DNA of 48,483 nt from Chthoniobacterales bacterium (GTDB lineage: Bacteria; Verrucomicrobiota; Verrucomicrobiia; Chthoniobacterales; Chthoniobacteraceae): the NCBI GenBank assembly GCA_041743065.1, contig JBGTNO010000018.1, positions 1 to 48,483 on the forward strand, in the 5' to 3' direction. Under the pieces are notes generated by a model that saw only the letters and a list, made by a program, of their open reading frames with translations, did not search any database and was not told where the DNA came from. This document shows positions 3,924 to 30,974 of the stretch, piece by piece. Both the position numbers and the translations under genes were made by a program. Position 1 is the first letter of the stretch; every line of letters begins with the position of its first letter.

Positions 3924-3936
3924 ATTTTCTCCGTAA

Positions 3937-4017: not shown

Positions 4018-4028
4018 TTTTCCTTTAC

Positions 4029-4104: not shown

Positions 4105-4111
4105 ATTTTCA

Positions 4112-4187: not shown

Positions 4188-4194
4188 ATTTGAA

Positions 4195-4268: not shown

Positions 4269-4269
4269 T

Positions 4270-4343
4270 TTCCCGAGTCGTCTAATAGGAGGACGCCTGG
4301 CCTACACCCAGGAGTCGGGGGAGCATAACCTCCACGGGCGACC
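4270..4343 (+). tRNA. tRNA-Val(UAC)-like, C33, weak acceptor
   Basis: D arm GTC-(9 nt)-GAC; anticodon arm CCTGG-CCTACAC-CCAGG; T arm GGGGG-AGCATAA-CCTCC; A73-CCA. The 5' acceptor strand pairs only 4 bp. Confidence 0.55.
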
Positions 4344-4598: not shown

Positions 4599-5405
4599 AT
4601 GAACATCGAATACATCATCGGCGGCATCATGGTCGCCATTGCCATCGCAGTGGCGGTTCGCACCGTGCGTGCCCGCTACCGTCACGAATACGTCGTCGCC
4701 GAAGGTTCCGTCGCGCTGATCTACCACGAGGGCAAACTCGCCGGTCGATGGGACGCGGGCCGCCACGTCCGCTGGGGCCGCCATTACCGCGTCGATCTAA
4801 TCGACGTGCGTAAGACGCTGCTCCAGGTCCAGGGTCAGGATGTCCTCAGCGCCGACAATGTCGGCGTGAAGGTCAGCCTCGTGCTCACGACTCAGATCGT
4901 CGATCCAGTCAAGAACGTGCAGAGCGTGGACAACTACGTTCTGCATCTCTACAGCGCCGCGCAGTCGGCGGTTCGCGCCGTCGTTGCGGGCGTCGCGATG
5001 GACTCGCTGCTCAACCAGCGGGTCGCCATCAGCGGCCAGCTTCTCGAACTGCTGGCACCCCAGGCCGAGGAAATCGGCGTGAAGGTGCACGCAGTCGAAG
5101 TCCGCGACGTAATGCTGCCGGGCGACCTACGCCGCGCCTTCTCCGAAGTGCTGAAGGCGAAGCAGGAGGGCCAGGCAGCGCTGGAACGTGCCCGTGGCGA
5201 GTCGGCCGCACTCCGCAACCTTGCAAATGCGGCGCGTCTCATCGAGAGCCAGCCGGGCGTGGCAACGCTGCGCTTCCTGCAGACGCTCTCCGGCAACGAC
5301 GCAAAGCAGATGGTTGTGATGAGCGACATGTCTGCTTTCGCGCCAGTGTTCAAGGGCCGCTCCGGAAGTCGGTCGGCAACTGAAACCGAGTCGGAGGAAA
5401 CCTAA
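4599..5405 (+). CDS. SPFH/band-7 (slipin-like) membrane protein
   Basis: N-terminal hydrophobic helix, then an SPFH core (VDLIDVRK...QDVLSADNV...AVEVRDVMLP...KAKQEG). ATG preceded by AAGGAGG. Confidence 0.8.
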   Translation: MNIEYIIGGIMVAIAIAVAVRTVRARYRHEYVVAEGSVALIYHEGKLAGRWDAGRHVRWGRHYRVDLIDVRKTLLQVQGQDVLSADNVGVKVSLVLTTQIVDPVKNVQSVDNYVLHLYSAAQSAVRAVVAGVAMDSLLNQRVAISGQLLELLAPQAEEIGVKVHAVEVRDVMLPGDLRRAFSEVLKAKQEGQAALERARGESAALRNLANAARLIESQPGVATLRFLQTLSGNDAKQMVVMSDMSAFAPVFKGRSGSRSATETESEET

Positions 5406-5509
5406 GATGCGAGGGAGGAAGGCACGCCCCGGCGGGGATTCGTCTCCGCCGGGGTGATGCGGCCCCCAAGCAATCAACCCCAATCACCAACATAGAAAGG
5501 AGGTTCCCC

Positions 5510-6286
5510 ATGCATGGGAACGAAGTCCTCAAGCGCGTCCGCCACGCGCTCGCTCAGGTCGAGGCCGAGCGGAACGTGCGCGTGCTTTTCGCGTGCGAGA
5601 GCGGCAGTCGGGCGTGGGGCTTTGCCTCGCGTGACAGCGACTACGACGTGCGCTTCCTCTACGTCCACCGGCGAGACTGGTATCTTTCAGTCGAGGATCG
5701 GCGCGACGTCATCGAACAGCCCATCGCCGATGATCTCGACGTGAGCGGCTGGGAGCTGCGCAAGGCGCTGCGGCTGCTCCGCAAGAGCAATCCGCCGTTG
5801 CTTGAGTGGCTGAAGTCACCGGTCGTGTATCGTCACGATCCGGTCTTCGCCGCCGAGTTCGGCGCGCTGGCGGCGGAGTTCTATTCGCCACGGCGCTGCT
5901 TCGCGCATTACCTGCACATGGCCTTCGGCAACTGGCGCGACTATCTGCGCGGTCGCGAGGAAGTGAGTCTGAAGAAGTATCTCTACGTCTTCCGTCCGCT
6001 GCTCGCGTGCCGCTGGATCGAGCGTCAGCTCGGTCAGGTGCCGATGCTCTTCGCGCAACTCGTGGAGAGCGTGCTCGACGAAGCCGACGTGCGCGCCGCC
6101 CTCGCGGAACTCGTCGCGCGCAAGCAGGCCGGCGAGGAGCTGGCTATCGCGCCTTCGGTCGAAGCGCTTTCGCGTTTCATCGAGGACGAGCTGCCAAGGC
6201 TCGAGGCGCTCAACGAGCCAGACGATGCCAAGGGCGAAGTGGAGGAGCTGAACGGCTTCTTCCGCCGCTACGCGCTCGCGGCTTGA
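5510..6286 (+). CDS. Pol-beta-fold nucleotidyltransferase, RlaP/COG3541-like
   Basis: N-terminal motif LFACESGSRAWGFASRDSDYDVRFLY is typical of the RNA-ligase-associated Pol-beta NTase family. Good RBS (AAAGGAGG). Confidence 0.65.
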   Translation: MHGNEVLKRVRHALAQVEAERNVRVLFACESGSRAWGFASRDSDYDVRFLYVHRRDWYLSVEDRRDVIEQPIADDLDVSGWELRKALRLLRKSNPPLLEWLKSPVVYRHDPVFAAEFGALAAEFYSPRRCFAHYLHMAFGNWRDYLRGREEVSLKKYLYVFRPLLACRWIERQLGQVPMLFAQLVESVLDEADVRAALAELVARKQAGEELAIAPSVEALSRFIEDELPRLEALNEPDDAKGEVEELNGFFRRYALAA

Positions 6287-6500
6287 CCACGCAACTGACG
6301 CCGTCCGGAGCCATCCGTTCCGGGCGGCGTCCTCATTTTCCACGAATCCAAACCTCAACCCATCCACATCAATGCAATCACATAAATCCATCTCCAAGCC
6401 GGGAGTCTCGCTGAGGCTCTCGAACCAAACTCAATCAGTCCGCGACGACATCCGCTCCGGCTTTCTGCCGGTGCCACGCGCGCGGTCAAAAACATAAAGT

Positions 6501-7307
6501 ATGAACTCAAAAACGATTGCGAATCAGTTCGCCCGCATGGACGCACGGTTCCGTGTCGTTCGTCCAGATGACCTGCCGCGGCGGCGTCAGCGCACCGACT
6601 ACGCGCTCGATATTGTCACCGATAAGCAGGGCCAACTTTTCGAGATGCAGCTTAGCGCTGAACGCGAGGCACAGCTCGAAATCGACGTGCTTCAATGCGA
6701 GCATCACGACCGGCATTTGCTCCTGCTTGTGAAAACGCCGGAGGCGAAGGATCGCTTCCTGTGCGGACACGACGAGCGGGAGTGGTTTGTCGCCGCGGTG
6801 CCCGGCGGTGCGTCAAGCGTGGTGCAGGCGAAGGTCGCTCTGCAACCAAGTGGAGCACGAGCCGCCGCCGATAGCGCCGGGCTAAACCTGCGTCAGCGCA
6901 CCCGCCGGCACAACCGAGCCTTCATCCGTCAGGGTGAATGGTTCTTCGTGCCCGTGCCGGAACTGCGCGTGGATGAAAAGTTCATCCTGCGCAACGAGCC
7001 GATCAGTCGCGGCGGCGGAAAGCCGCACCTCGTCGCTGAGCTTCACCGCTCCGGTGGCGAGAAGGTGTGGGTCTGCTCGCGTTATCCGAACGGTCTGACC
7101 GAATCGGACTACAAGCGGACGCTCGCGGACAACCGCGAGGCGAAGCGCTGGGGCTGGCAGCAGCGCGTCCGCAATGCGGGCGTGTTTGCGCGCGGTACCG
7201 TGCGTCACCGCGACCACGCGACGATCACGCTGCACAAGTGGCACCAGGTCTGGATGAACACCGAGAACACGACTCGTCAAATGGCGAACGTCGCATTCCT
7301 CGACTGA
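6501..7307 (+). CDS. hypothetical protein, no recognisable domain
   Basis: 268-aa ORF with coding-like composition, located between the NTase and rtcB on the same strand. Confidence 0.55.
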   Translation: MNSKTIANQFARMDARFRVVRPDDLPRRRQRTDYALDIVTDKQGQLFEMQLSAEREAQLEIDVLQCEHHDRHLLLLVKTPEAKDRFLCGHDEREWFVAAVPGGASSVVQAKVALQPSGARAAADSAGLNLRQRTRRHNRAFIRQGEWFFVPVPELRVDEKFILRNEPISRGGGKPHLVAELHRSGGEKVWVCSRYPNGLTESDYKRTLADNREAKRWGWQQRVRNAGVFARGTVRHRDHATITLHKWHQVWMNTENTTRQMANVAFLD

Positions 7308-7443
7308 GGAATGGCTTCAACGCAGCCGGGGAGGGTGACAAGCCTTCCCCGGCTGCATCTTTTCGACATAAAGAACAGACACCGCTGCGCACTCGGAGTG
7401 TGTCCGCACACCGCGCTCCTACTTTTCAATACGAACCACATCC

Positions 7444-8838
7444 ATGAACAACCAAGACCTCATCCGTCTCGGCGTGCCGCAGGGCGACGCCTTGAAACTG
7501 TCTCACGAACACATGCGCCGCCTGTTTGCTGGTGGACTCGATCGCGAGCAGGTCGAGGCCGAGATCTGCGACATCGTCGCAGATCCGCCGGCTTTCTTCG
7601 CCGACGAACTGCGTGCACCGCTGGCTCGTGCCCTCTACCGGCCGGCTTTTACGCCGCGCGCGGAACTCGCGCCGTGGCGTCAGTGGGGCGAGGGCCTTGA
7701 AGCCGAGGCGGTGAAGCAGATGGCGAATGCATGTGCGCTGCCGGTCGCGGTGGCGGGCGCGCTCATGCCGGATGCGCACGTCGGCTACGGCCTGCCGATC
7801 GGCGGCGTGCTCGCGACGGATAACGCGGTGATTCCTTACGCCGTCGGCGTGGACATCGGCTGCCGTATGAAAATGACCGTCTTCGATCGGAAGGTGAACA
7901 CGATTTCCGGGCAGAAGGATCGTCTCGCGAACATCATCGAGAGCGAGACGCGCTTTGGCGTGGGCTGTGAGTTCAAGCAGCGCCGCGAGCATGACGTCAT
8001 GGATGAAGACTGGGGCGTTTCCCCGGTCACACAGCGTCTCCGTGACAAGGCTTGGGCTCAGCTCGGAACGAGCGGAAGCGGCAATCACTTTGTGGAATTC
8101 GGAACTTTCACGGTGTCGGAGCCGGTGCTTGGACTGGATCCTGGAGAATACGTGGCGCTGCTCTCGCACAGCGGGTCCCGCGGCACCGGCGCTCAGGTTT
8201 GCCAGCATTACAGCCGCCTCGCTATGGATCGTCACGCGGATCTGCCAAAAGAGCTGAAGCATCTCGCGTGGCTCTCGCTCGATGAAGCCGCTGGCCAGGA
8301 ATACTGGGCCGCAATGAATCTGATGGGGCTCTACGCCGCGGCGAACCACGCGCTCATCCACAGGCACATCGCACGCAAACTCGGCGCGCATGTGGTCCTC
8401 GACATCGAGAACCACCACAACTTTGCGTGGAAAGAGCGCCATGAAATCGCCGGCGTGGAACGTGAAGTGATCGTCCACCGCAAAGGCGCGACCCCGGCGG
8501 GCGCTGGAGTGCTGGGTATCATCCCTGGCTCGATGGCGTCGCCCGGCTACGTCGTACGCGGCAAAGGCGAGCCGGAATCGCTGACCAGCGCTTCCCACGG
8601 AGCCGGCCGCGTGATGAGTCGGACGAAGGCGATGCAGTCCTTCACGTGGAGTGCCGTAAAGAAACTCCTCTCCGAGCGCGACGTGACGCTGCTCTCCGCG
8701 GGCCTCGATGAAGTGCCCGGCGTTGACAAGGACCTCGCACCAGTGATGGCCGCGCAAACCGACTTGGTCGAAGTGCTCGGTCGATTCGACCCGCGCCTGG
8801 TGAAAATGTGCCCGAGCGGCGAACGTGCGGAGGACTGA
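7444..8838 (+). CDS. rtcB: RNA 3'-phosphate/2',3'-cyclic phosphate ligase RtcB
   Basis: Motifs GSGNHFVEFG, HSGSRGTG, NHHNFAWKE, HRKGATPA, SASHGAGR. Confidence 0.9.
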   Translation: MNNQDLIRLGVPQGDALKLSHEHMRRLFAGGLDREQVEAEICDIVADPPAFFADELRAPLARALYRPAFTPRAELAPWRQWGEGLEAEAVKQMANACALPVAVAGALMPDAHVGYGLPIGGVLATDNAVIPYAVGVDIGCRMKMTVFDRKVNTISGQKDRLANIIESETRFGVGCEFKQRREHDVMDEDWGVSPVTQRLRDKAWAQLGTSGSGNHFVEFGTFTVSEPVLGLDPGEYVALLSHSGSRGTGAQVCQHYSRLAMDRHADLPKELKHLAWLSLDEAAGQEYWAAMNLMGLYAAANHALIHRHIARKLGAHVVLDIENHHNFAWKERHEIAGVEREVIVHRKGATPAGAGVLGIIPGSMASPGYVVRGKGEPESLTSASHGAGRVMSRTKAMQSFTWSAVKKLLSERDVTLLSAGLDEVPGVDKDLAPVMAAQTDLVEVLGRFDPRLVKMCPSGERAED

Positions 8839-9426
8839 ATGATGAGTGACGTACTGAACAAAACCACAGTGCTGGTGCTGAATCGAAACTGGCAGGCGAT
8901 CCACGTCAAAACGCCAACCCAGGCATTTTGCATGATGGCCGCCGATGTGGCGACCGCCCTCGACATCGAGGACACCGGCGGCATGCGTCCAGTGAAGTGG
9001 ACCGAGTGGCTCACTCTGCCGGTGCGCGCGGACGATAACTCCGTGCGCACCGTGCATGGGGCCGTGCGTGTTCCCACGGTCCTCGTGCTGGCGAACTACG
9101 CGAAGGTGCCGAAGCGGCGCCCGAAGTTCTCCGCGAAGAACATCTGGCAGCGGGACGGTGCGACCTGCCAGTACACGGGGCGCAAACTCGCGCCCCACGA
9201 AGGCAACATCGATCACGTAGTGCCTCGTTCACGCGGCGGTAGAACCGCTTGGGAGAACTGCGTTCTCGCCCACCGCGAGATCAACTCGCGAAAGGCAGAC
9301 AGGTTGCCCGAAGAAATCGGCCTGCGTCTGCGTCGGCAACCCGCCGCGCCACGAGAACTGCCTGCCACCATGCATATTCGCAATGCGCACAGCGTACGCG
9401 ACTGGGAGCATTTTCTGAAGTCGTGA
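8839..9426 (+). CDS. HNH endonuclease
   Basis: CQYTG...IDHVVPRSRGG...NCVLAHREINSRK (HNH/His-Me finger). The start abuts the rtcB stop codon. Confidence 0.8.
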   Translation: MMSDVLNKTTVLVLNRNWQAIHVKTPTQAFCMMAADVATALDIEDTGGMRPVKWTEWLTLPVRADDNSVRTVHGAVRVPTVLVLANYAKVPKRRPKFSAKNIWQRDGATCQYTGRKLAPHEGNIDHVVPRSRGGRTAWENCVLAHREINSRKADRLPEEIGLRLRRQPAAPRELPATMHIRNAHSVRDWEHFLKS

Positions 9427-9674
9427 TCCGGAGAAGCTTGCGCCCAGACCTGCGCAAATCGCCGAAGTTCAATAATTGTGGCGATATAAGAGGAAAAGGA
9501 ATAGTCCTTCTGAATCTGTGAAACGACTGTAGGGGTTGGGGGAGAAGCTGCGATCTGCGGCATATACTGAACGGACCCTAACCCGAGAAGCCTTCCCAGG
9601 CTTGTCGCTTGTGCCGGATCTCTCAACGATGCACGCTCGTTCCGACAGTGATGATAATCCGATCAATTCGCGTA

Positions 9675-10945
9675 ATGGAACGTCTGGCCCTCGCTGCTTT
9701 GATGCTCTTTGCCGTGATGCCTGATGCGGCCGTTGCCGAAACGAGAATCGCGGTAGCAGCGATCAACGAGCTGGGCCTCGAACTCCAACGGAACCTTCCG
9801 GGCGGGAACGAAAATCTGTGCGTTTCCCCGTACTCGATCCAGAATGCTTTGGCCATGACGTATGCCGGGGCGGATGGCGAGACCCGCACTGAGATGGGGA
9901 AGGTCCTTCACTTCCCAGAGGAGGAGGCTGCGCTGCACGATTCTTTCGACGCCTTGCGAGGTGAGATCGAGAAATCATCGGCTGAAACGGTCAAGCTGGC
10001 GCAGAAGTCGAAGAAATGGGGGGGGCCAGCAGTCCTATCGAGATCCATCTGGCCAACGCACTTTTTGGGCAGACCGGTTACGATTTCCGGGAATCCTTTC
10101 TAGAGCTTGTGAAGGAACACTATGGCGCGGGGTTGGGAAGACTCGACTTTGCGGGTGATGGTGGCAAGGCGGCGTCGGAGCGGATCAATCGATGGGTCGA
10201 ATTGCAGACCAAGGGGCGCATTGCCAACCTCCTTGAGGATTTGGACCCGCAAAACCGCCTGATTCTGGTCAATGCGATCTATTTCAAAGGACCGTGGGCC
10301 AGTGAGTTCCCCGCCACGGCCACGAAACCGGCGCCGTTTCACGTGGATGGCGGAACGCCGGTGAATGTGCCGACGATGAAGCTCCAAAGTCAGTACGGTT
10401 ACGCGAAGCGGGATGGTTACGTGGCGCTGAGCATCCCTTACGTCGGCGACGAATTGCATTTTCTGATTCTCTTGCCCGATGACCTCAAGGGACTCCCTGC
10501 CCTGGAGGCGCGGCTCACCGCGGAGATCGTGGCCGATTGTGCCGAGTTGGAAGCGGCAGAAGTGGAGGTATGGCTCCCGCGTTTCAAGCTCGAGCCGCCG
10601 ACGCTGGATTTGAAACAGTTCCTACAGGAAATCGGGATGAAAGCAGCGTTTGATCAGCCACCTGGCAGCGCCAACTTTGATCGGCTCGCCCCGCGGCGGG
10701 CCGACGATTACCTTTTCATTTCGGAAGTTTCGCACAAGACGTTCATTGCGGTAGACGAGCGTGGCACCGAAGCGGCGGCCGCGACTGCCGTTCGCATGCT
10801 GGCGTTCGGAGCGCCGCCCGAGCCACCCAGACCCATCGTCGTGAGGATCAATCGTCCTTTTTACTACGCCATTCAGCACCGACCCACCGGAGCCTGCCTC
10901 TTCATGGGGAGAGTGGTGGATCCGCGGCCGCCATCAACGCACTGA
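9675..10945 (+). CDS. secreted serpin, reading frame interrupted at a G8 tract
   Basis: Signal peptide MERLALAALMLFAVM; SPYSIQNALAMTYAGA; FKGPWASEF; C-terminal NRPFYYAIQH...FMGRVVDP. Frame changes at G8 (10018-10025); one extra G restores a single ORF. Confidence 0.8.
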
Positions 10946-18868: not shown

Positions 18869-19639
18869 CTACGTCTCAACTTCCTGAGTATTTCCCGTTT
18901 TGCAGCAGGGCTCGCCCAGCGCGAAGTCCGGCACCGCGTGCCACTCGTGTGGAATGTTTCGCATGAGCAGCGCACAATCGAACTGAACGCTGCCTTTGGG
19001 AAACAGGGTCGCGTCGGCGAAGTAGCTCGAATGTATTTCCGTGAGATCCAGCGCTTCCACCTTCCATGCACGAGTGCGAAGCGAGATTCCGTCGAGTCGA
19101 TTCGAACCGCGCGTGACAGAATAGCCTAGCGAACCGCTCTCGAAGAATGCCGATGCTTCGGCCAGTGATCCGAAGCCTGAAGCAGAAGGCAGAACCGAGG
19201 CTGATCTGCCTTTGACTTTCACGGCCACCTTCCCGTCCCGCGATTTCATTTCGAGGTCTACCGAATCGTCGTCACCTTTAACGACGAAATCTGCGAGGTG
19301 ATGCTCTCCGGGGAAAAGACGCCCGCCCGCTAGATGGTTCAGCCAGGAGCCGGTGTCCCGCCTCGGGATGAAAACGCCTTCATGTTCGGCACCGTCGGAG
19401 TCGGTCCATCGTACCGCGATCCGATGCGCGGCGTTCTCGCTGCTGACGCCAAGAAAGGCTGGCGCGAGCTTCGGCCGAATCTGTTCGAGACGGATCAGGC
19501 AGATGCCGGCAATAGCTGACCCGGCATGAAGCTTCGGCTCGAATCCGGGCGGCAGGTGCCTCCTCATCACATCCGAATCAACCCGGAAATTCGCCAGGAT
19601 ACGTCGGTGGATGATGCCCTTGATGATCGGCAGTTTCAT
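18869..19639 (-). CDS. DUF2071-like protein
   Basis: Start chosen at MKLPIIKGIIHRRILANFRVD; family assignment is from memory only. Confidence 0.45.
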   Translation of the reverse strand: MKLPIIKGIIHRRILANFRVDSDVMRRHLPPGFEPKLHAGSAIAGICLIRLEQIRPKLAPAFLGVSSENAAHRIAVRWTDSDGAEHEGVFIPRRDTGSWLNHLAGGRLFPGEHHLADFVVKGDDDSVDLEMKSRDGKVAVKVKGRSASVLPSASGFGSLAEASAFFESGSLGYSVTRGSNRLDGISLRTRAWKVEALDLTEIHSSYFADATLFPKGSVQFDCALLMRNIPHEWHAVPDFALGEPCCKTGNTQEVET

Positions 19640-19736
19640 GGCTGGGAAGGAAATCCTGGCGTCGAGCGAGAGCCGTCTCTTCGTCCTCATCGAACTCGCC
19701 CGACAGCGATTTCTTTGTCTATGATGCCCCGCCAAA

Positions 19737-21137
19737 ATGCTTCTGACAATCGCCACCACACACCAACCGGCAACGGATCTCGGGCATCTGCTGCGAAAGA
19801 ATCCAGCGCGGATGCAGAGCTTCCAGCTCAGTTTCGGCCAGGCCCACGTATTCTATCCGGAGGCAACGGAAGGGAGTTGCAAGGCTGCGCTGCTTCTGGA
19901 AATTGATCCGGTTGGGCTTGTTCGGGGGCGTCACGGACCAGCGGGGGAAGGCCGCTCGCTCGAGCATTACGTAAATGACCGTCCGTATGTGGCTTCATCA
20001 TTTCTGAGCGTCGCGATCGCCGAAGTCTTCGGGAGTGCGTTGTCGGGTAGAAGCAAAGAGCGTCCTGAACTGGTCAACTCGCCACTGCCGCTCGCGGCTT
20101 CTATCGCGGCTTTGCCTTGCCGGGGTGGCGAAGCGTTCCTGCGCCGGCTGTTCGAGCCGCTCGGCTACCGGTTAAGCGTTACAGGGCATCCGTTGGATGA
20201 AAATTTTCCAGACTGGGGCGAGAGCCCGTATTTCACAGTGACGCTCGACGCGACCCTGCCGCTGCGCGTGCTGCTCTCGCACCTTTACGTGCTCATTCCG
20301 GTGCTGGATAACGACAAGCACTACTGGGTCGGCGATGATGAGGTGGACAAACTTCTGCGCCATGGCGAAGGCTGGCACGGCACGCATCCAGAGCGCGACT
20401 TGATCACTCGCCGCTATCTCAAGCACCGGCGAAGTCTGGTTGACGACGTTCTGAGCCGACTGACTGAAGAGGACAACCCCGATCCCGATAGTGCCGAACA
20501 GATTCATTCGCAGGAAGAGGCGCAGTTCGAGGAGAAGATCAGTCTGAATGAACAGCGGCTCGGCGCGGTGCTCGCGGAGTTGAAACGCAGCGGCGCCAAA
20601 CGGGTGCTCGACCTCGGCTGCGGCGAGGGTCGGCTCGTGCGTGCGTTGCTCAAGGAAAAGCAGTTCGAGGAAATCGTCGGAATGGATGTTTCGTACCGCG
20701 CCCTCGAAATCGGTCGCGAACGGCTTGATCGCCTTCCGCCGATGCAGCAGAATCGCATCCGGCTAATTCACGGCTCACTGATCTATAGGGACATACGACT
20801 TGCTGGCTATGATGCGGCCGCCGTCGTGGAAGTGATCGAGCATCTCGATCCGCCACGGCTCGCGGCGTTCGAGCGCGTGCTATTCGAATGCGCGAAACCC
20901 GCGACGGTCGTTCTCACGACCCCCAACGCGGAATACAACGTGAAGTGGGAATCGCTGCCAGCAGGGAAGTTCCGGCACAAGGATCACCGGTTCGAGTGGA
21001 CGCGCGAGCAGTTTCAAGTTTGGGCGAAAGGCGTGGCCGGACGCTTTGGCTACACTGCCAAGTTTTTACCTGTCGGACCGGAAGACGCCACCGTCGGCGC
21101 GCCGACTCAAATGTCTGTGTTCGTGCGATCAGACTAA
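19737..21137 (+). CDS. hen1: RNA 3'-terminal 2'-O-methyltransferase Hen1 (bacterial type)
   Basis: N-terminal MLLTIATTHQPATDLGHLLRKNP...FGQAHVFYPE; C-terminal SAM methyltransferase VLDLGCGEGRL...VVEVIEHLD. Confidence 0.85.
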   Translation: MLLTIATTHQPATDLGHLLRKNPARMQSFQLSFGQAHVFYPEATEGSCKAALLLEIDPVGLVRGRHGPAGEGRSLEHYVNDRPYVASSFLSVAIAEVFGSALSGRSKERPELVNSPLPLAASIAALPCRGGEAFLRRLFEPLGYRLSVTGHPLDENFPDWGESPYFTVTLDATLPLRVLLSHLYVLIPVLDNDKHYWVGDDEVDKLLRHGEGWHGTHPERDLITRRYLKHRRSLVDDVLSRLTEEDNPDPDSAEQIHSQEEAQFEEKISLNEQRLGAVLAELKRSGAKRVLDLGCGEGRLVRALLKEKQFEEIVGMDVSYRALEIGRERLDRLPPMQQNRIRLIHGSLIYRDIRLAGYDAAAVVEVIEHLDPPRLAAFERVLFECAKPATVVLTTPNAEYNVKWESLPAGKFRHKDHRFEWTREQFQVWAKGVAGRFGYTAKFLPVGPEDATVGAPTQMSVFVRSD

Positions 21138-22756
21138 TGAATATCCGAAACGCAATTGTCAGGATGTGCTGGCCATGGCGGCACCGCGCCGCGAGCGGAG
21201 CGGTTGATCGTGCGGCGCAGGTCTCGACTATCAAACAGCTTGGCGAGGCCGGCACGCCTTCCAGTCTCTGGCATCTTCTCGAATACCTCTCGTCGTCAGA
21301 TTCATCGGTTAGAGAAGCCGCCGGATCTTCGATCGCGCAGCAACTCGATCTGGTGCCTCCTGCGCACCTATCGAAACTTGATGAGAGTCTCCGGGCAGCA
21401 ACTGCCTCGAACTGGAATCTGGACGGATGGCGGCGCCTTACGCCAGAGCAGGTAGGTGCTTTCGCCGACGATGCAAACGCATGGGCAATGCTGGGGGTGT
21501 CCAGCTTCCATCCGAATGGATATGTCCGGGAAAAATCGGTGCGCATTCTTGGCGCCATGCGCGACCGGAAGATTCTTGGTTTTCTACTCCTTCGGGTAAA
21601 CGACTGGGTGGCTCCCATCCGTTCGATGGCGCAGAGCGAGGTGCTCGCCCGCCTGACTCAGGAGAACTCCATGATGTGGATTCAGAATCTTCCGCTTGTA
21701 ACACGCCTGGAGTCATGCGGGCGTGGAATGCATGAGACAATCGTCGAAGCTGTGTATGGCCTTCTGGTAAACTCCGAGTGCCGAGATGCCTTGGTCAACG
21801 GTATCACTTCCGGTGACCGTGACATTCGCAGAGCCTGCTTTCGGGTGGTGGAAAGAATGCCCGAAATCCAAACGCGCCCTTTGCTTGAGGCTGCCATCGA
21901 AACTCAAGATCCCATTCTCCGCTTTCGCGCCTCGCAGCGCCTTCTCCGCCAAGTTCATATCGCGGATCTCGATCGGCTCTGCGAACGCTTTTTGAGCGAT
22001 CATTTCATGCCGGTTCGTCGCGCGGCGCTTGAGAGCGCGGTTGATCGAGGCTCAGGGAAGTTGGTGGCTTTTCTGCTCGAGGCGCTCGTTGATCGACATG
22101 CCAGCATTCGGGAACTGGCCCGCTTTCACCTGGTTCGGCGACACAATATTGACGTTCGGGCTGAGTATATTCAATTGCTCAAGACTTCTCGCGGCAAGAG
22201 ATTGGCGGCGACGATCCTCGGCTTGGGCGAGATCGGCGCCCAAGAGGATTTCGACTTAATCAAACCCTACCTGCAATCACACCCAGTTCAGGTGTGTATG
22301 GCAGCAACAGTGGCGGTCGGCCGCCTGGCTCCAACGGAAGCTCTCCCTTTTCTCTTGAAGGCTTTGCAAGGAGACAGCCCCGGCATCTCCCGGCAGGCAG
22401 AGCGGGCGCTTGCCCCCCAGGCGAACTCCGTTCCATACAAGGAACTGGTATCGATATTTCAAGGGAGTCCCAAGCCACACGTGCGAAGAAATACAATTCG
22501 GCTCCTTGTCAGGGGCACTAAATGGGAACGGCTCAGCCCACTCATCAGCGCCTGCGGCGATGATGATCCACAAGTTCGAGAGATTGCGAAGGCTGCTGTT
22601 GAGAAGTGGTTGTATCGATACAACGTCAGCTTCTTGCAGCCAACTCAGCGGCAGGTCGAGTCGGCACAATCAGCGATGGCTGTGGCCGGCGACCAATTGT
22701 CCGCAGCCGTTCGCCAGAACCTTACCACCCTGCTTTGTGATTGGGAGAAACGATGA
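21137..22756 (+). CDS. HEAT-repeat protein
   Basis: Start ATG overlaps the hen1 stop (TAATG). Repeated helical HEAT-like units (VREAAGSSIAQ, VRRAALESA, IRELARFHL, VQVCMAATVAVGRL, VREIAKAAV). Confidence 0.65.
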   Translation: MNIRNAIVRMCWPWRHRAASGAVDRAAQVSTIKQLGEAGTPSSLWHLLEYLSSSDSSVREAAGSSIAQQLDLVPPAHLSKLDESLRAATASNWNLDGWRRLTPEQVGAFADDANAWAMLGVSSFHPNGYVREKSVRILGAMRDRKILGFLLLRVNDWVAPIRSMAQSEVLARLTQENSMMWIQNLPLVTRLESCGRGMHETIVEAVYGLLVNSECRDALVNGITSGDRDIRRACFRVVERMPEIQTRPLLEAAIETQDPILRFRASQRLLRQVHIADLDRLCERFLSDHFMPVRRAALESAVDRGSGKLVAFLLEALVDRHASIRELARFHLVRRHNIDVRAEYIQLLKTSRGKRLAATILGLGEIGAQEDFDLIKPYLQSHPVQVCMAATVAVGRLAPTEALPFLLKALQGDSPGISRQAERALAPQANSVPYKELVSIFQGSPKPHVRRNTIRLLVRGTKWERLSPLISACGDDDPQVREIAKAAVEKWLYRYNVSFLQPTQRQVESAQSAMAVAGDQLSAAVRQNLTTLLCDWEKR

Positions 22757-25308
22757 AGATTACGATTCCAGAGCTAGCGTTTGTGGTTCTTATCGGTCCA
22801 TCCGGATCGGGGAAATCGACGTTTGCCCGCCGTCACTTCAAACCCACGGAAGTGTTGTCCTCGGATCATTGCCGAGGGCTCGTGTGCGATGACGAGAATG
22901 ATCAGGCGGCGACGCCGGATGCGTTTGCCGTTCTGAACTTCATCGCGTCGAAGCGACTCGCCAGCGCGAAGCTGACGGTCGTCGATGCCACAAACGTTCA
23001 GGAGGAATCCCGGAAGCCACTGGTTGCGCTGGCTCGGCAGTATCACTGCCTGCCCGTCGCCATCGTTTTCGATCTCCCGGAGAAGCTGTGTCACGAGAGG
23101 AATCAGAGCCGTCCCGACCGCACGTTTGGGTCGCATGTCGTGCGGCAGCAGACTCAGCAGATGCAGCGCTCACTCCGCAAGTTACAGCGGGAAGGTTTCC
23201 GCCATGTCTTCGTTCTCCGCACTCTTGAAGAAGTCGAGGAGGTCACGATCGAACGGCAGCCGCTGTGGAACAACAAGCGGGATGAGCACGGCCCGTTTGA
23301 CATCATTGGCGATGTGCACGGTTGTTTCGACGAACTTGCCGCACTCCTGGCAGAGCTGGGCTACGAGCCGCAACCGGGCGGAAGCTACGCGCATTCTGAA
23401 GGGCGAAAACTGATCTTCGTCGGTGATCTCGTCGATCGCGGGCCGAAGATTCCCGAGGTTGTACGGCTCGTTATGGAGTCGATCAAAGCCGGGCACGCGT
23501 TCTGTGTTCCAGGTAATCACGACATCAAATTCATGCGCGCGGTGTGGGGCAAGGACGTGCAGATCAAACACGGTCTCGCCGAGTCTCTGGAGCAGTTCAA
23601 GGCGTACGAAGAACATTATCGTGGATTCAGTCGGGTGGCAGCGGAGTTCATCGACTCCCTCGTGAGCCACTACGTTTTTGACGACGGGAGGCTGGTCGTC
23701 GCCCATGCCGGGATGAAAGAGGAGATGCAGGGGCGGGGGTCTGGCCGCGTTCGGGAGTTCGCGCTTTACGGAGAAACGACAGGTGAAAGCGATGAGTTCG
23801 GTCTGCCGGTGCGCTACAACTGGGCGGCAGATTATCGTGGCAAGGCGATGGTTGTTTACGGCCACACTCCGGTGCCCGAGCCCGAGTGGCTCAATCGAAC
23901 CATCAACATCGATACGGGCTGTATTTTTGGAGGAAAACTCACCGCGCTTCGCTATCCGGAGAAGGAAATGGTCTCCGTGCCCGCGGCGCACACCTACTGT
24001 GTGCCCGCGCGTCCTTTCCTTGAGGAAGGCATCGCGGCCCCGGTGTTGAGCGCGCAGCATCAGCTCGATGATCTGCTCGACATGGAGGACGTTCTGGGCA
24101 AGCGGATCATCTCCACCCGCTTGCGTCAGAACGTTACGATCCGCGAAGAGAACGCGATCGCAGCGCTGGAGGTGATGAGCCGATTTGCGGCGAATCCGAA
24201 ATGGCTGATCTACCTGCCGCCGACGATGTCTCCGACGGAGACGACGAAAGAGCCGGGCCTGCTCGAGCATCCCGCCGAGGCATTTGCCTACTATCGGCAC
24301 GAAGGCGTAGCTCGGGTGGTTTGCGAGCAAAAGCACATGGGCTCCCGTGCCGTTATCATCGTCTGCCGAAACAGCGAGGCGGCGCTCAAGCGTTTTGGTG
24401 TCGTGGACGAGTCCGGCATCATCTATACGCGGACCGGAAGGCGATTCTTTGACGATGCGGAGATCGAGGGTGCGCTCCTTTCGAAGATCCGCGCCGCACT
24501 CGACGCGGCGAATTTCTGGGAGGAGTTCACGACAGATTGGGTCTGTCTGGACTGCGAGCTGATGCCATGGTCGGCGAAGGCGCAGGAATTGTTGCGCCAG
24601 CAATACGCCGCTGTCGGCGCCGCTGCCCGCGCATCGCTTTCGTGTGCTATCGATGCGTTGGTGTCCGCCGAGGCGCGAAGACTGGATGTCACCGATATGC
24701 TCGGACGGTCGCGCGCAAGGGACGAGGCGGCAGGCAAATATGTGGACGCTTATCGACGCTACTGCTGGCCCGTCAACTCACTTGCCGATCTCAAAGTCGC
24801 CCCATTTCATCTGCTGGCCACTGAAGGCAAAGTCCACTCGGATCGCGACCACTTTTGGCACATGGCAGCGCTGGCGAAGATCTGCACCGCAGAGCCGGAA
24901 CTTCTCCTCGCGACCGCCCACATGACGGTCGATGTCACAAGCCCTGCCAGCCAGGACGAGGGCATCGCGTGGTGGACGGACATGACGAACGCCGGCGGCG
25001 AGGGAATGGTTGTCAAGCCTCTCGACTTCGTCGCGACCGGCCGCCGGGGCCTGATCCAACCGGCGGTCAAATGCCGGGGCCGGGAATACCTGCGAATCAT
25101 TTACGGCCCGGAATACACCGCGCCGGAGAATCTCGAACGCCTTCGTTCGCGCGGTCTCGGGAGGAAACGCTCGCTCGCTCTGCGAGAGTTCGCCCTCGGT
25201 CTGGAAGCTTTGGAGCGCTTTGTGACTCGTGAGCCGCTGCGTCGCGTCCATGAGTGCGTATTTGGAGTTCTCGCCCTCGAAAGCGAGCCGGTGGATCCTC
25301 GCCTATGA
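22753..25308 (+). CDS. pnkp: polynucleotide kinase-phosphatase/ligase Pnkp
   Basis: P-loop kinase GPSGSGKST; calcineurin-like phosphatase GDVHGC...GDLVDRGP...GNHD; C-terminal adenylyltransferase with the EQKHMGSR lysine motif. The start overlaps the HEAT gene stop (ATGA). Confidence 0.85.
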   Translation: MKITIPELAFVVLIGPSGSGKSTFARRHFKPTEVLSSDHCRGLVCDDENDQAATPDAFAVLNFIASKRLASAKLTVVDATNVQEESRKPLVALARQYHCLPVAIVFDLPEKLCHERNQSRPDRTFGSHVVRQQTQQMQRSLRKLQREGFRHVFVLRTLEEVEEVTIERQPLWNNKRDEHGPFDIIGDVHGCFDELAALLAELGYEPQPGGSYAHSEGRKLIFVGDLVDRGPKIPEVVRLVMESIKAGHAFCVPGNHDIKFMRAVWGKDVQIKHGLAESLEQFKAYEEHYRGFSRVAAEFIDSLVSHYVFDDGRLVVAHAGMKEEMQGRGSGRVREFALYGETTGESDEFGLPVRYNWAADYRGKAMVVYGHTPVPEPEWLNRTINIDTGCIFGGKLTALRYPEKEMVSVPAAHTYCVPARPFLEEGIAAPVLSAQHQLDDLLDMEDVLGKRIISTRLRQNVTIREENAIAALEVMSRFAANPKWLIYLPPTMSPTETTKEPGLLEHPAEAFAYYRHEGVARVVCEQKHMGSRAVIIVCRNSEAALKRFGVVDESGIIYTRTGRRFFDDAEIEGALLSKIRAALDAANFWEEFTTDWVCLDCELMPWSAKAQELLRQQYAAVGAAARASLSCAIDALVSAEARRLDVTDMLGRSRARDEAAGKYVDAYRRYCWPVNSLADLKVAPFHLLATEGKVHSDRDHFWHMAALAKICTAEPELLLATAHMTVDVTSPASQDEGIAWWTDMTNAGGEGMVVKPLDFVATGRRGLIQPAVKCRGREYLRIIYGPEYTAPENLERLRSRGLGRKRSLALREFALGLEALERFVTREPLRRVHECVFGVLALESEPVDPRL

Positions 25309-25382
25309 ATGCTGGCTGTTCGAATAGGGGTCCGAATGAGGAGTGAGTCCTATTATTCTTGCCTACGCCCCGCAGCACCATG

Positions 25383-25470
25383 CTGGCGGAGCGGCGGGGT
25401 TGCCTGGTCACCTGAAATGCTGCGGTCCGATGAGATCCGCTTGGATACGGGAAGCGCTGCTCGCTACTCA
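25383..25470 (+). repeat. direct repeat copy 1 (see 43767-43855)
   Basis: The first 34 nt (CTGGCGGAGCGGCGGGGTTGCCTGGTCACCTGAA) are identical to 43767-43800, followed by about 50 nt of roughly 80% similarity. Confidence 0.8.
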
Positions 25471-25483
25471 TGACGACTGCAGT

Positions 25484-25516
25484 AGAAAATAAAAAAGGAG
25501 CGTCGATCAGGCGTCC
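25484..25516 (-). terminator. intrinsic terminator of the helicase gene
   Basis: On the minus strand: hairpin GGACGCC...GGCGCTCC-like (25497-25516, one bulge), followed by TTTTTTATTTTC. Confidence 0.5.
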
Positions 25517-28500
25517 TTGTAGCCCTTGCGGAGTTTCTCCGCGGTGAGCTTTTCCACTTCGCGTCCAGCGCGTTCGACTGTGTCGAAAGTTTTGGTCTGC
25601 GTCTGACCTTGGGCACCGATGCGGCCGTAGCAGACGGTGACGTTCACGCCGTCGGAGGACACTTCCCAGAATTTGGAGGAACGACCCTCAATCAATTCGA
25701 GACGACGACGTCTCCCAGTCGCGCCAGCGACACTGGGAGGTAGAGTGCTGGTCGGGGCAAGCGGAATTGCAGTCGGCCCGGTATTTCCGGGCACGGGCGG
25801 CGGGAGGTCATAATCGAGTTCGACCGTTGGCTCCACCTCGCCGCGGATCAGCCGTTTGATCCGGTCGAGCACGGCTTGGGGCTCGTGATACCAGTCGCGC
25901 GTCAGGACCAGGGCGACTTGCCAGCCAAAGGCGCGAAGGATGCCAGGTTGCGTGACGGAGCGCTCGGCGACGTTTGGATTTGCGTAGTGCCCGGCGGTGT
26001 CCACGATGATTCCCAGACAGTAGTGCCGGGAGTCACCGGTGCGCACCGCGAGATCGCAGCGGAAGCGCGATTGGCCGACGTGCTCGTCCACGACGAAGCC
26101 AGCCGCACGCAATGCCTCTGCGAGTTGCAGACTGACGGCGTCCTTGCCGTTCGCCGGTGCAAGCTGCTTGCGCGTAAGCGGGTTCAGGCTTTCGAGAACA
26201 CCGCGCGCGAGTCGCAGTTCGCCGCGGGACGAGCACTCGGAGTAGTGGAGGAAGTTCTTCAGCGCCGCTGCGCCGTCGTTGTAGTCGTTTGTGATCGCGT
26301 GATGCCGGATGCTGCTGACCACTGCCCTGTGGTGACGTGCCCGGCTAAAGATCACGTTTAGCCGCTTCTCGCCCCCACGTTGGTTGATCGGCCCGAAGTT
26401 CATTAACATCCGCCCGTTCGGATCCGGCCCATAGCAGATGCTCAGCAGAATGATGTCGCGCTCATCGCCCTGCACGTTCTCCAGGTTCTTCACGAAGAGG
26501 CCGCAAAATTGATCATCCTCCTCACGCGCGTATTCCTCCTCTAGTCGGCCGCCAAACGCCGAGTCCTCCGCGGCCAGTGTTTCGAGGGCGGATTCTATCT
26601 CACCCTGCTGCGCTTCGCTGAACGCGACGATACCGATGCTGAGTTTGGTTTCGCGCCGGAGAAGCTCACGCACGAGCTGGGCGATGTAAGCCGCCTCGCC
26701 CCCATTGCGTCGGCCTTCGTATGGGCTGCGCTCCATGAAATGAAAACTGAGCGGTCGGCCGAGGAGCGACCCGCAATTGATCGAGGCGTCTGCTGGCGCC
26801 CGGACGAGGATCTCAGCTTGCTCCGGGGCCGGTAGAGTGAGGTCAGGAATCGTGTAGAGATTGCCGGCGTAAAAGGCAGCATTACTGAAGCTGATCAGCG
26901 ATTCCGAACGGCTGCGGTAGTGCCAGGCGAGCAAGGTGGCGGACAGATTTTTCGCGCTCTGGGTGAGGAAACTGTCGGCATCGAGCGAGACCGCGACGCG
27001 CTCACCGCCTTCCTCAACTTCGAGAGTATCGTCCTCCACGGCGCGGGCGGCGGAGAAGAAATTGGTCGGCGGGAGCTGCATCTCGTCGCCTACGACAATG
27101 ACCTGCGGTGCGCGATAAAGTGCCGGCACGGCTTCCTCAACGGGAATCTGGCTGGCCTCGTCGAAGATTACCACGTCGAACAAATCAGGTGCGAGCGGCA
27201 GCGTGTCGGAGACGCTAAGCGGACTCATCAACCAGATCGGCTTGAGGTCGCGCACCACCCGTCCTGTGTCCGCGGCGGCCAAATCGCGGATGGATTTGTA
27301 GCGCATCGTTTTCCCGAATTCGTGCTCCAGATCGCGTCGCCCCGCGCTGTAACTTTTTTGAAGAGCTTGCCAGCGGCATCGAGTTGCGTGGCGGAGAGCG
27401 TGGAGACCTGGACGTGCTCGCGGAATCGATGACGGACCTCGGCGCGAATAACCGCGGCGTTCTCCGCGAGCCATTCGCGTTCCGTGGTGCCGATGCGCTC
27501 GGCGCGATGCGCCACCACGCGACCGTCGAAACGTGGGAGCCAGCGTTCGGTCCGATAAACCTGGTCGAGACTGGTGCGTGCGATCGCCGCCTCCATTTGA
27601 TCCGGCGTGAGTGTAAAAGTGCGAAGCGCGTGCGCAAAGGCCGGCGGCGTCTCCGCGAGTTCTCCCAGGAGCGGCAGCAACTCCGGAAGCGCATCCGCTT
27701 CCTCGCGCAGATCGCGAACCGCTTCACCGATTCGCGCAAGATCTTGCCGCCGGAAATCGGCCAGCAGCGTGTCGAGCACGGAGATTAATTCCCCGAGCCG
27801 CGGCGCTAGAGCGTTCAGTCGCTCGACAACGCCCCTGCCTTCCTCGGACTCCAGCAGCAAGTTACGCAACGCCGTGAGCGCTGGCATCCCGAGGTCGGGC
27901 AATTGCAGCGGGGCGATGGACTCCAGCAATTTGACCGGTTCCACGCCATACTCGGCGAAGGCCGCCTGCCGGGATTCGTCGCGGGCGGCGATAGCGGCGT
28001 ATTCCCCTTCCAACTCGGTGAGCACCTGTGAGAGCGCGGGCCGGATGGCGTGCTTGGAAAAGTCGTAGCGCGTCTCGATAGCCTTTTTAAGCTGCCACCA
28101 CGACGGCTTCACGAACCGCAGCAGTGAATTCTCGTTTGCCCGCCCCTGCGCTATGGCTGCTGGTACGTCGCCGGACGGAAGCTTCTCGCGCCAATGCGCC
28201 GTTTTCGCCTGCGCGCGCTCGACGGCCTTGTCGTACTTGCCCAATTCCACCGCGGTTTTCTCCAACGCCCTGGTGAGCTTACTTTTCGACGCGAGCAGCT
28301 CGAGCTGATCGCGCCCGGCCAACTCCGCGACCTGAGTTGCAAAAGCAACCAGCGACTCGATTTCCTCCACTGTGTCCCAGTGCTCCTCGGGCAGCCCGCT
28401 GCTCCCGAGCGCCGATTCCACACCATCGAGCAAAGTCTCAGTGCGATCCGCAAGATCGTTGAGGGTTTCCAGTGGACGCTCGGCGCGGATCACGCCATCG

Positions 28501-30974
28501 CCCAGCCAGCGGAACGGATGCGCCGCCAGGGAAGTCGTATCGGCAACCTCCGTCAACGTCTTGGCGAGGCGACGTGCGATGTCGGCATGCGTGCGCCAGA
28601 CGCCGAAGTTTGGCAGATGCTCGGCGTCGCCGACGGAAAGTTGCGGCTCGTGCTCCCGCAGTTCGACGAGCCGGTGCAGTAACTCGCGCACGGGCCACGC
28701 CACATGTTCCGGAACGCTGCGCATTGCGGCGTCGAAGCGCCGGAGCGAGTCGAGATCGTGTTCCATTTGCCGGAGCAACGCGGTGCGCCGCTCACGCGCG
28801 GCTTCGGCATTATCGGGCTCGGCGAGCCACTTCTCGTAGGTCTGCTTGAGATTCAGGACGAACCCCTTTTTGTCAGTCTGCGAGTCGTGGATGAGGCAGC
28901 AGAGTTCATCGAGCCCTTGCTGGCGCAGGCGGTGGAAGACGACATCGATCGCTGCGCGCTTTTCGCAGACAAAGAGCACCCGTTTTCCGCGCGCCACGTA
29001 GTCGGCAATGAGATTGGTGATCGTCTGTGACTTCCCCGTGCCGGGCGGACCTTGAATGATGTAGCTGCGACCGGTGCGGGCCAGCGCAACCGCGGCGGAC
29101 TGGGTAGCGTCGCCAGGCACCACTGGCCACTCGTCAACCCGCGCGAGTGCGGCAGCGCCTTCGTCATCGAGAGGGCGCGGATCGAGCGAGAAGACGCGAT
29201 CAAACGCCTCGCTCGTCAGTTCGTCATCGAGCAGTGCGCCGTAGTCCCGCACGAGCGACATCTTCCGATAGTTGAAGTTACCAACAGTGAGTGAACAGAG
29301 GTCGAAGTCCCATGAGTAGGGATTGCCGGGTCGATCTTCACGCAAAGCAAACGTCTGCCGCTCCGTCTCCACGACGGGCTCGGAGGGCAGCACAGGCGCG
29401 ACCATGTGGGGCAGACGCGCTTCCGACAGTCCACCCGCCGCGGCCCGCTGCGGCAGCGGCGCCGGCAGCACCTTTTCCCGGAAGAGCTGGAGGCCGAGCG
29501 GCCGGAAGTTCTCGCGATCGTAGCTGTAGCTGAAGCTTGCTTTGGTGCGCTTCGCCGGTGCGCGGAGCTTTTGTTTGCGCTGGAACTGAGCGAGCCGCTG
29601 GCGGGCCCGCTCGTGAATAAGTTGGATCTCGGGCTTGTCCACGAGCCGGAGCGTGACACCAGGTTCACTCGCGCGAATTTGCGCTTTGAGTTCACTATGA
29701 AATTGCTCCAGGGGCGTCTCGCGCAGATCAATGGATTCGGGCAGGCGCAGTCCGTAGAGCTGATGCAGATGATGACGCAGCGCGGGATTCACCTCTGCCT
29801 CGCTCGACGTGGGATCGAGCAGGTATTGATCGCGTACGCCCTTCTTCTTTGACAGCTCGACTGGGAGCAGCAGGAGCGGCGAGACGATGCGTTCCTGCGG
29901 CGTCTCCTTGAGGTTGTGCCAATGCAGGAACGCAATCACGAGCCGGAGCTGTGCGAAGCCATACTCGGCGCGGTCGCGGCGCGCGTCGGAGATCAGCTTG
30001 TCGAGCGCGCTGGGCAGATACGGCTGGTCCTCGAAGCGCAGCCACCGTCCGAGACTCATGGCTTTTCCGTCAATGACTTCTGCCGCCAACGCCGGATGCC
30101 AGACAAAGAGCTGCTCCAGCCGCACGCTCGCCAGATTCATAACCATCGGCACGCTTGCCACGGTGAAGTTGAGCGACGCCTGCGAGGGTTTGAAATATAG
30201 CAGCCGATTGCGGCGGGTGATTTCAAACAGCCGGTCGCGCAGATGAGTCTGCACCAGTTTGCGCCGCCCATTTAGGCCGGCCTCGGCAAAGCCGGGCAAC
30301 TTCGCCACGTCGATGTCGGGCATCTGCTCCCGGTAGTTTTCCAATCGGCGAATGAGCGACGGCAGGTCTGGCGCTCGACGATGGCGGTTAAGCTCCGTCA
30401 TTTCGACGATGACGGAGGCAAGCACCGGATGGAGCCGCGCGTTCACGCCGAATAGATTGGCTCGATGCGAAACGAATATGCTGAGGTCGTCCGCATCCGT
30501 AAAATCGAGACCGAGCGCAATGCTGGCGAGAATCTGGCCAAGCGCGAAGATGTCCGTGAACGCGTCGTGATGACCGACCAGTTCCTCCCACGTCCGATAC
30601 CCGGTGATGTAGGCAGGATGCTTCATCTCCACCTCGCCATCCGTGACCTCGAGATCGGTGTATTCTATGCCAGCTTCATCGTCGGAGGTCACGCGGGCGT
30701 GGCCAATCACGTTGAGCGCGCTGGCGACCGGTTTTTGAAGCTCGTCGATGCGCGCGAGGTTTGCGGCCGGCGCGATGGCGGTGCCATCGCAACGCAACGC
30801 TCCAGGCTCATCGACCGCAAGGGTCGCGAGGCCATGCAACGGAGCAACGAGCGACTGCTCGTGCCAGGCGGCCACCTGCCGGAAAAGTGGCAGCACCGCG
30901 GCCAGCACGTCGTCGGTCTGGAAGCCCACGCCCTCGCCGCGCTGCAGGAGTTGAAGAAACGGGGTGACGCTCAT
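25507..30974 (-). CDS. giant Upf1/DNA2-like SF1 helicase with REase-like and WGR domains, frameshifted
   Basis: Walker A IIQGPPGTGKSQT; VIFDEASQ; VVGDEMQLPP; NVQGDERDIIL; REase-like RFRCDLAV...IIVDT; C-terminal WGR (FWEV...CYGRIGAQG). The two ORFs (27228-30974 and 25507-27474) join if the A6 run (T6 at 27352-27357) is A7. Confidence 0.75.

Follow-up and report, generated by a model that had tools for sequence, protein, structure and literature searches.

What does a HEAT-repeat protein contribute to a bacterial RNA repair operon when its gene lies between hen1 and pnkp? The question is raised by a stretch of 48,483 nucleotides (nt) from a Chthoniobacterales bacterium (Verrucomicrobiota; GenBank assembly GCA_041743065.1, contig JBGTNO010000018.1), referred to below as the window, in which hen1, a gene for a 539-amino-acid (aa) HEAT-repeat protein and pnkp follow one another on the forward strand. 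The answer preferred here, held with moderate confidence, is that the HEAT protein is an optional accessory which binds RNA or a substrate in bacterial RNA repair and not a scaffold specific to Pnkp and Hen1. The strongest signal is the translational coupling of this family of basic, non-enzymatic solenoids to two unrelated RNA ligases, in the company of RtcA, Rnl, HD-kinase and HNH genes and of tRNA arrays. From the sequences we infer that the protein may bind RNA, act as an adaptor and contact Pnkp, Hen1 or RtcB. The three-gene locus (the triad) is composed as follows.

19737-21137, forward strand: hen1, 466 aa (open reading frame (ORF) with TIGR04074 and Hen1_L matches)
21135-21139, forward strand: TAATG junction, in which the hen1 stop TAA (21135-21137) shares one base with the HEAT start ATG (21137-21139)
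21137-22756, forward strand: HEAT-repeat gene, 539 aa from the ATG at 21137 (HEAT_2 match)
22753-22756, forward strand: ATGA junction, in which the pnkp start ATG (22753-22755) overlaps the HEAT stop TGA (22754-22756)
22753-25308, forward strand: pnkp, 851 aa from the ATG at 22753 (TIGR04075 match)

Both junctions can be read directly off the sequence, and together with the ORFs they bear out the original prediction (made from the letters and an ORF list) of three co-oriented genes joined by TAATG and ATGA overlaps. As in other Pnkp-Hen1 systems, hen1 and pnkp lie on one strand and in one operon, here by way of the overlapping gene between them. The mechanically called ORF of the HEAT gene opens earlier, at 20888; the start at 21137 matches the N-termini of its homologs. 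A Shine-Dalgarno-like GGGAG motif is found 7-11 nt 5' of the pnkp ATG, and a promoter and terminator scan of positions 19000-26000 returned nothing above shuffled background and no internal terminator within the triad.

The flanking genes are canonical. Hen1 matches the NCBIfam equivalog model TIGR04074 with 716 bits (cut-off 340) over positions 2-463, that is, at full length, with the Pfam domain Hen1_L (PF12623, 2.7e-112) at residues 1-242 and methyltransferase domains at residues 290-388; the product is predicted to be a 3'-terminal RNA ribose 2'-O-methyltransferase with an N-terminal domain that activates the Pnkp ligase and a C-terminal methyltransferase. It is 63-81% identical to thousands of Hen1 proteins. 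Pnkp matches the equivalog model TIGR04075 with 1447 bits (cut-off 750) over positions 1-851 of 851 and carries AAA_33 (3.8e-30), Metallophos (7.5e-17) and PNKP_ligase (2e-189) domains in one polypeptide, as expected of a trifunctional polynucleotide kinase, 2',3'-phosphatase and RNA ligase. Both proteins are full length and 70-79% identical to their counterparts in two-gene operons, so that the HEAT gene adds to the system and does not make up for a lost domain.

The HEAT protein itself (isoelectric point (pI) 9.4, net charge +12) is matched by generic repeat models (HEAT_2 in three stretches, 5.3e-27 in Pfam, and HEAT_PBS) and by no specific Pfam or NCBIfam family. Its AlphaFold2 model (mean predicted local distance difference test score 90.7, predicted template-modeling (TM) score 0.79) is an all-alpha solenoid of about 34 helices without beta strands. 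The best 50 of 209 Foldseek matches at E<=0.001 are generic HEAT solenoids (TM 0.24-0.41; PP2A PR65, SF3B1, karyopherins, alphaRep), the nearest being scaffold or cargo-binding proteins, with no Ro structure and no enzyme among these 50. In a profile search of the PDB, residues ~250-490 matched alphaRep chains down to 1e-37 and CpcE at 6e-09. The protein is a basic solenoid of HEAT repeats that lacks a catalytic domain.

Judged by profile searches, the protein belongs to a large, well-defined and unnamed family of about 540 aa, whose members carry either no name or only that of "HEAT repeat protein". An exhaustive search gathered 3,055 representatives of clusters at 50% identity with E<=1e-30; over 150 of these are full-length matches at E<1e-125. 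A motif scan of metagenomes found 280 loci with relatives. An early impression that the family is rare was dropped: the word-indexed search behind it gave 15-16 relatives since its prefilter scores only 8,000 candidates. In an alignment of 152 representatives, conservation reaches 80% or more at 64 positions, and G128, R131, D156, W157 and D319 are invariant. Conservation peaks at residues 121-200, which include the motifs LLLRxNDWV (residues 150-158) and CGRxDH; further motifs are FMPVRR, HASIRE and GLGETG (GLGExG). The window protein scores 676 bits against the family profile and retains every position that is invariant in a 15-sequence alignment. With full-length homologs, these conserved positions and a confident model, the middle ORF is a real gene. 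The family as a whole is consistently basic (median pI 9.2-9.5, net charge +9 to +14), which fits nucleic-acid binding.

Conservation of this kind could also be taken as the mark of a HEAT protein that recognizes or processes lesions itself, acting on damaged RNA through R131, R153, N155, D156, W157, D319, R325 and Y344 in the manner of the glycosylases AlkC and AlkD. AlkD has an active site of Asp and Trp on a HEAT-like solenoid, the surface of the present protein is basic, and the dense invariant polar and aromatic cluster of residues 121-200 with D319, R325 and Y344 exceeds what a plain scaffold needs. Such a catalytic role is nevertheless highly improbable: the protein has no Pfam match to DNA_alkylation or to any other enzyme family, AlkC and AlkD are absent from the best 50 of the 209 Foldseek matches, and the conserved Arg, Asp and Val-Arg are in part the signature of PBS-type HEAT repeats.

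The genomic distribution of the family is the main evidence for a connection with RNA repair (loci other than the window are cited by L numbers). The original prediction would have been weakened by absence of this HEAT gene from all other pnkp-hen1 loci. It is not absent: six further hen1-HEAT-pnkp loci were found, all metagenomic (L007, L091, L150, L157, L164, L165), in which the first junction is ATGA or an abutting TGA-ATG. Three of these depart from the plain arrangement. A small HEAT gene lies 5' of the large one in L165. In L157 hen1 was not detected and a DUF234 ATPase gene is located upstream of HEAT-pnkp. An insertion sequence breaks hen1 in L164 (L164:2-2510; a DDE transposase with DUF772 and DDE_Tnp_1 at 528-1643) and an uncharacterized 291-aa gene precedes the HEAT gene, with HEAT-pnkp intact.

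Among the remaining family members the commonest neighbor is a gene for the RNA ligase RtcB, directly downstream on the same strand, with an HNH gene upstream. The HEAT stop codon overlaps the RtcB start (ATGA or GTGA) in L090, L095, L106 and L126; the two genes are separated by a gap of ~130 nt in L154 and by a 295-aa gene in L113. This linkage occurs in at least eight distinct lineages (L089/L090, L095, L106, L107, L113, L126, L132, L152/L154). The clusters of L089 and L090 also hold an Rnl-type ligase (PF09414) and an HD+AAA_33 kinase, RtcA accompanies the HEAT gene in L089, L113 and L139, and tRNA genes are found upstream of the HNH-HEAT-RtcB clusters of L090 (seven tRNAs), L106 and L113. 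In total, an RNA-repair gene lies 5 kb or less from the HEAT gene in 23 of 88 loci of the family. Genomes encode only a few RNA-repair genes, and because of this the chance of such adjacency should be well under 1% (an estimate of the authors and not a computed statistic). The family is thus linked to RNA repair independently of the hen1-pnkp operon, through RtcB operons, which upholds the proposed tie of the third gene to this process.

One side observation concerns a basic protein of ~290 aa (pI 9.8) found in L164 (2507-3382) and L113 (2700-3587). The two copies are 37% identical, have no Pfam or PADLOC match, and occur in both operon types, hen1-x-HEAT-pnkp (L164) and HNH-HEAT-x-RtcB-RtcA (L113).

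Does the HEAT protein serve as a dedicated scaffold, as first suggested, that is, as a stoichiometric third subunit which bridges or remodels the Pnkp2-Hen12 heterotetramer by specific protein contacts? Its gene stands between those of both enzymes, overlaps the start of pnkp in all seven triads (and is overlapped at both junctions in the window), and its closest folds include the scaffold subunit PR65 of PP2A; moreover, Hen1 is known from one complex of three proteins, Pnkp1-Rnl-Hen1 (PMC4411300). The first difficulty is that members of this family are also coupled to RtcB, a ligase unrelated to Pnkp that has no fold in common with Pnkp or Hen1; a role confined to these two enzymes is accordingly not supported. 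Coupling of one HEAT family to two unrelated ligases makes a substrate or process the likelier conserved partner than a surface of Pnkp or Hen1. The Hen1 and Pnkp proteins of triads are, in addition, indistinguishable from two-gene versions and interleaved with them in the Pnkp tree, and the HEAT protein diverges much faster than its supposed partners. Finally, pnkp starts show this overlap in general. On balance a dedicated scaffold is unlikely.

Several observations weigh against the accessory reading as well, and the first of them concerns this overlap. The start of pnkp is nearly always ATGA or GTGA, and a long upstream ORF that ends in the TGA of the start was found in 27 of 50 two-gene loci (the ORF there being hen1), in 7 of 20 loci that carry other inserts, among them a DUF4143 ATPase, TPR-Mrr and an SduA_C nuclease, and in 7/7 HEAT triads. 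The difference between triads and other inserts has a Fisher p of ~0.004 by the authors' own calculation, in which the triads are not independent. Because the overlap is common with hen1 and with unrelated inserts too, coupling into pnkp is an operon-wide habit; it is not specific to the HEAT gene and alone provides no argument for the stoichiometric ternary complex that the overlaps had been thought to imply.

The gap between hen1 and pnkp is likewise not reserved for this family. Eighty genome loci from many phyla were surveyed, the most similar to the window Hen1 (the best 80 of about 600 or more; 63-76% identity). Both genes are held by 72 of these and run hen1 then pnkp on the same strand in 72/72, so that hen1-first order, which the original prediction had regarded as a variant feature, is normal; the Anabaena operon is indeed named hen1-pnkP in the literature (PMC8421152). 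No insert separates the two genes in 52 of the 72, 0.5-5.7 kb lies between them in the other 20, and none of the 80 has the ~540-aa HEAT family. The inserts encountered are listed below.

RlaP pairs: L021, L023, L032, L034
AAA_33 kinase and Thg1-like protein: L015, L071, L082, L084, L085
Small HEAT family, ~290 aa: L014, L064, L071, L032
Other inserts: TPR+Mrr_cat, DUF4143 ATPase, AAA_15+DUF3226, SduA_C nuclease (Shedu-like), TnpB, PhyH
Uncharacterized proteins: L009 (303 aa), L034 (361 aa), L060 (296 aa), L066 (542 aa)

With TnpB and defense-type nucleases and ATPases among its contents, the gap appears to be a permissive, fast-swapping slot. Near-identical Pnkp sequences can flank unlike inserts (L150 with HEAT and L016 with TPR-Mrr, at a distance of 0.06).

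Some of these inserts merit mention in their own right. The association with RlaP is already known (PMC12776372). The Thg1-like protein (~260 aa, Thg1 and Thg1C domains) and the AAA_33 kinase (149 aa), present in cyanobacterial and other hen1-pnkp operons, suggest that 5'-end repair has been added to the system. The small HEAT family (L014:2143-3006, L064:9389-10315, L071:9248-10168, L032:9407-12658, L165:1621-2682) is acidic (pI 4.6-5.2), 38-72% identical across Verrucomicrobiota, cyanobacteria and Armatimonadota, and was seen only between hen1 and pnkp; one copy in L032 is fused to TPR repeats. It resembles the ~540-aa family at the level of the repeats only, and the two co-occur in L165. 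A further group of loci has hen1 and no detectable pnkp in the available downstream sequence (L041, from Abditibacteriaceae, with 8 kb; L057; L058), and these depart from the statement that hen1 and pnkp always share one operon.

Phylogeny and composition supply further points against. Among triads the HEAT proteins are 31-36% identical and Hen1 and Pnkp 67-77%, a fast divergence that could reflect weak constraint, and the G+C content at third codon positions (GC3) of the HEAT gene (0.61) is below that of hen1 (0.68) and pnkp (0.71). In the Pnkp tree every triad Pnkp is placed among those of Verrucomicrobiota, mixed with Pnkps of other loci: the nearest relative of the window Pnkp is from L008 (Chthoniobacter), in which hen1 directly adjoins pnkp with no insert, and that of L150 is from L016, carrying TPR-Mrr. 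About three quarters of the sampled HEAT-family members have no RNA-repair gene nearby and some adjoin relaxase or integrase genes. No other neighbor is common to several clades, the free-standing members being accompanied by clade-specific small ORFs and by ABC, helix-turn-helix, relaxase or integrase genes. The HEAT gene is facultative: it is missing from the closest pnkp relative, and the majority of the family is free-standing.

In bootstrapped neighbor-joining trees of the HEAT proteins L150, L164, L165 and L157 form a clade at 99%, and the window groups only weakly with L007, at 23%. A single origin of the triad HEAT proteins is not supported, the seven being monophyletic in 0 of 100 bootstraps. 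Resolution of the deep nodes is poor, and the trees do not separate repeated capture from an ancient linkage followed by losses: the gene either entered such operons several times or is an old component that has often disappeared.

The DNA metagenome runs from the hot-spring source (X1-X3) were also inspected. Over positions 19000-26000 the conserved parts of hen1 and pnkp recruit contigs of other community members at 85-95% identity. The HEAT segment (21106-22743) recruits contigs of the strain alone, at the depth of that strain, and has no coverage in X3. Short "joints" in the hot-spring contigs over this region look like artefacts and were discarded.

Taken at face value, these data would allow the HEAT gene to be a mere passenger, one of many unrelated cargoes in a gap that tolerates insertions and without any role in RNA repair. 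Very unlike inserts in 20 of the 72 loci (TnpB, DUF4143 ATPase, AAA_15+DUF3226, SduA_C, TPR-Mrr and PhyH), the exchange of inserts between near-identical Pnkps, the many free-standing family members and the lower GC3 are all as a passenger would have it. The repeated, independent translational coupling to RtcB, with RtcA, Rnl, HD-kinase and tRNA arrays besides, is nevertheless hard to ascribe to chance. Furthermore, the triads retain an intact, conserved HEAT ORF, and the arrangement is kept both by a diverged four-member clade (99% bootstrap) and by three deep lineages. The passenger explanation is rated as rather doubtful, though it is the one that comes nearest to competing.

The rapid divergence of the HEAT protein relative to the enzymes beside it may be read in yet another way: the solenoid could bind a ribotoxin or a phage protein instead of RNA and either neutralize it or trigger or license repair. 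HEAT solenoids are classic protein binders, defense-type genes occupy the slot in relatives, and a candidate defense helicase resembling PDC-S37 and Hhe lies immediately downstream on the opposite strand. The consistently basic charge of the family does not suit such a sensor, and the invariant Arg, Asp and Trp of its conserved core suggest a ligand that stays the same, as opposed to a protein target that changes quickly. No family member was found on viral contigs, PHROGs gave no match, and PADLOC matched the protein at the repeat level only (HEAT-ARM_XIII, 5e-16 over part of a 1972-position model). A function in immunity is therefore considered improbable.

The helicase region itself (25507-30974, reverse strand) consists of two overlapping ORFs, 25507-27474 and 27228-30974, which jointly resemble one large helicase with DUF4011, AAA_11/AAA_12, MTES_1575 and WGR domains (PADLOC PDC-S37, 4e-131, and also Hhe); a frameshift or an assembly error probably accounts for the split.

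The accessory reading can be set out as a sequence of events. The HEAT protein would share an mRNA with Hen1 and Pnkp, would most likely bind the repair target, a broken tRNA or another damaged RNA or ribonucleoprotein, and would present or protect this substrate for the enzymes that heal, seal and methylate its ends. In this genome the protein may serve a second ligase as well, encoded in the upstream part of the window.

378-4188, forward strand: array of 12 tRNA genes (ARAGORN)
4599-5405, forward strand: Band_7/SPFH protein (Band_7, 2.2e-28)
5510-6286, forward strand: RlaP nucleotidyltransferase (RlaP, 4.2e-92)
6501-7307, forward strand: 268-aa basic ORF, pI 10 (no family matched)
7444-8838, forward strand: RtcB RNA ligase (PF01139, 1.2e-81)
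8839-9426, forward strand: HNH endonuclease abutting RtcB (HNH_4, 1.7e-08)

The orthologous RtcB-HNH pair and the tRNA array lie 10-19 kb upstream of the triad, the RtcB-HNH cluster at ~12 kb. With 464 aa the window RtcB equals in length the HEAT-coupled RtcBs of L090, L113, L154 and L106, to which it is 62-67% identical, and its HNH protein is 53-63% identical to those encoded upstream of HEAT in L089-L154; in the window the HEAT gene accompanies hen1-pnkp rather than RtcB. The tRNA/RtcB island (378-9426) has a GC3 of 0.75-0.82, above the 0.61-0.71 of the hen1 triad. Beyond it in the window a serpin is encoded as two overlapping ORFs, 9609-10103 for the N-terminus and 10016-10945 for the remainder, and this split (9609-10945) is likely a frameshift.

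A broader proposal, put forward only tentatively, is that the ~540-aa family is a general factor for the recognition or targeting of damaged RNA, analogous to Ro/Rsr, which would serve both RtcB and Pnkp-Hen1 and choose the RNAs to be repaired, for example the tRNAs of linked arrays. An accessory that travels with both unrelated ligases offers a direct experimental handle on the physiological RNA targets of Pnkp-Hen1 and RtcB and on how the damage is found. A likely biological process can also be assigned to a large, unnamed HEAT family, and the hen1-pnkp gap emerges as a rapidly exchanging slot for HEAT, TPR, RlaP, Thg1-like, nuclease and ATPase cassettes, modular in the way of defense islands.

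Literature searches of 8.3 million papers for Pnkp/Hen1 or RtcB combined with HEAT turned up no account of such a gene at these loci; the main census of RNA-repair neighborhoods, by Burroughs and Aravind (2016), lies outside their scope, so that a prior mention is possible. The closest known system is Pnkp-Hen1 itself, as described from Clostridium thermocellum and Anabaena variabilis, in which the two proteins form a Pnkp2-Hen12 heterotetramer; it is characterized by repair of RNA cut by ribotoxins, with 2'-O-methylation at the junction. The window encodes the same full-length enzymes in the usual hen1-pnkp order and differs by the added 539-aa HEAT gene, the characterized systems having two genes per operon (PMC4411300). 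Capnocytophaga has a complex of three proteins, Pnkp1-Rnl-Hen1, because its Pnkp is divided into Pnkp1 and a free-standing ligase, Rnl; its hen1 gene is at a distant site (PMC4411300). The window system likewise comprises three proteins including Hen1; unlike that of Capnocytophaga, its Pnkp keeps the ligase domain, its hen1 is part of the operon and what is added is a repeat protein without enzymatic function. Other accessories of the gap (RlaP pairs, AAA_33 kinase with Thg1-like protein, small HEAT) share the slot, the strand and often the ATGA with the HEAT gene but belong to different families.

At the level of the protein, the tandem helix-turn-helix repeats of ~31 residues (HEAT_2/HEAT_PBS) are those of PBS-lyase-type solenoids such as CpcE/NblB, YibA and alphaRep. 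The likeness is confined to the repeats, in residues ~250-490, whereas the N-terminal core (LLLRxNDWV, CGRxDH) and the genomic context are peculiar to the ~540-aa family. The other comparison is with Ro/Rsr, whose ring of HEAT repeats binds RNA that is damaged or misfolded and whose gene belongs to rtcB operons (PMC3854526). Membership in the Ro/TROVE family was rejected, since the window protein has no TROVE or vWA domain (Pfam, E<=0.01) and no beta strands, and no Ro protein is among its best 50 of 209 Foldseek matches. Like Ro/Rsr (TROVE; rtcR-ro-rtcB-rtcA operons), it consists of HEAT repeats, has a mass of ~60 kDa and is encoded next to an RNA-repair ligase, and Ro/Rsr may be regarded as the best functional analogy for it.

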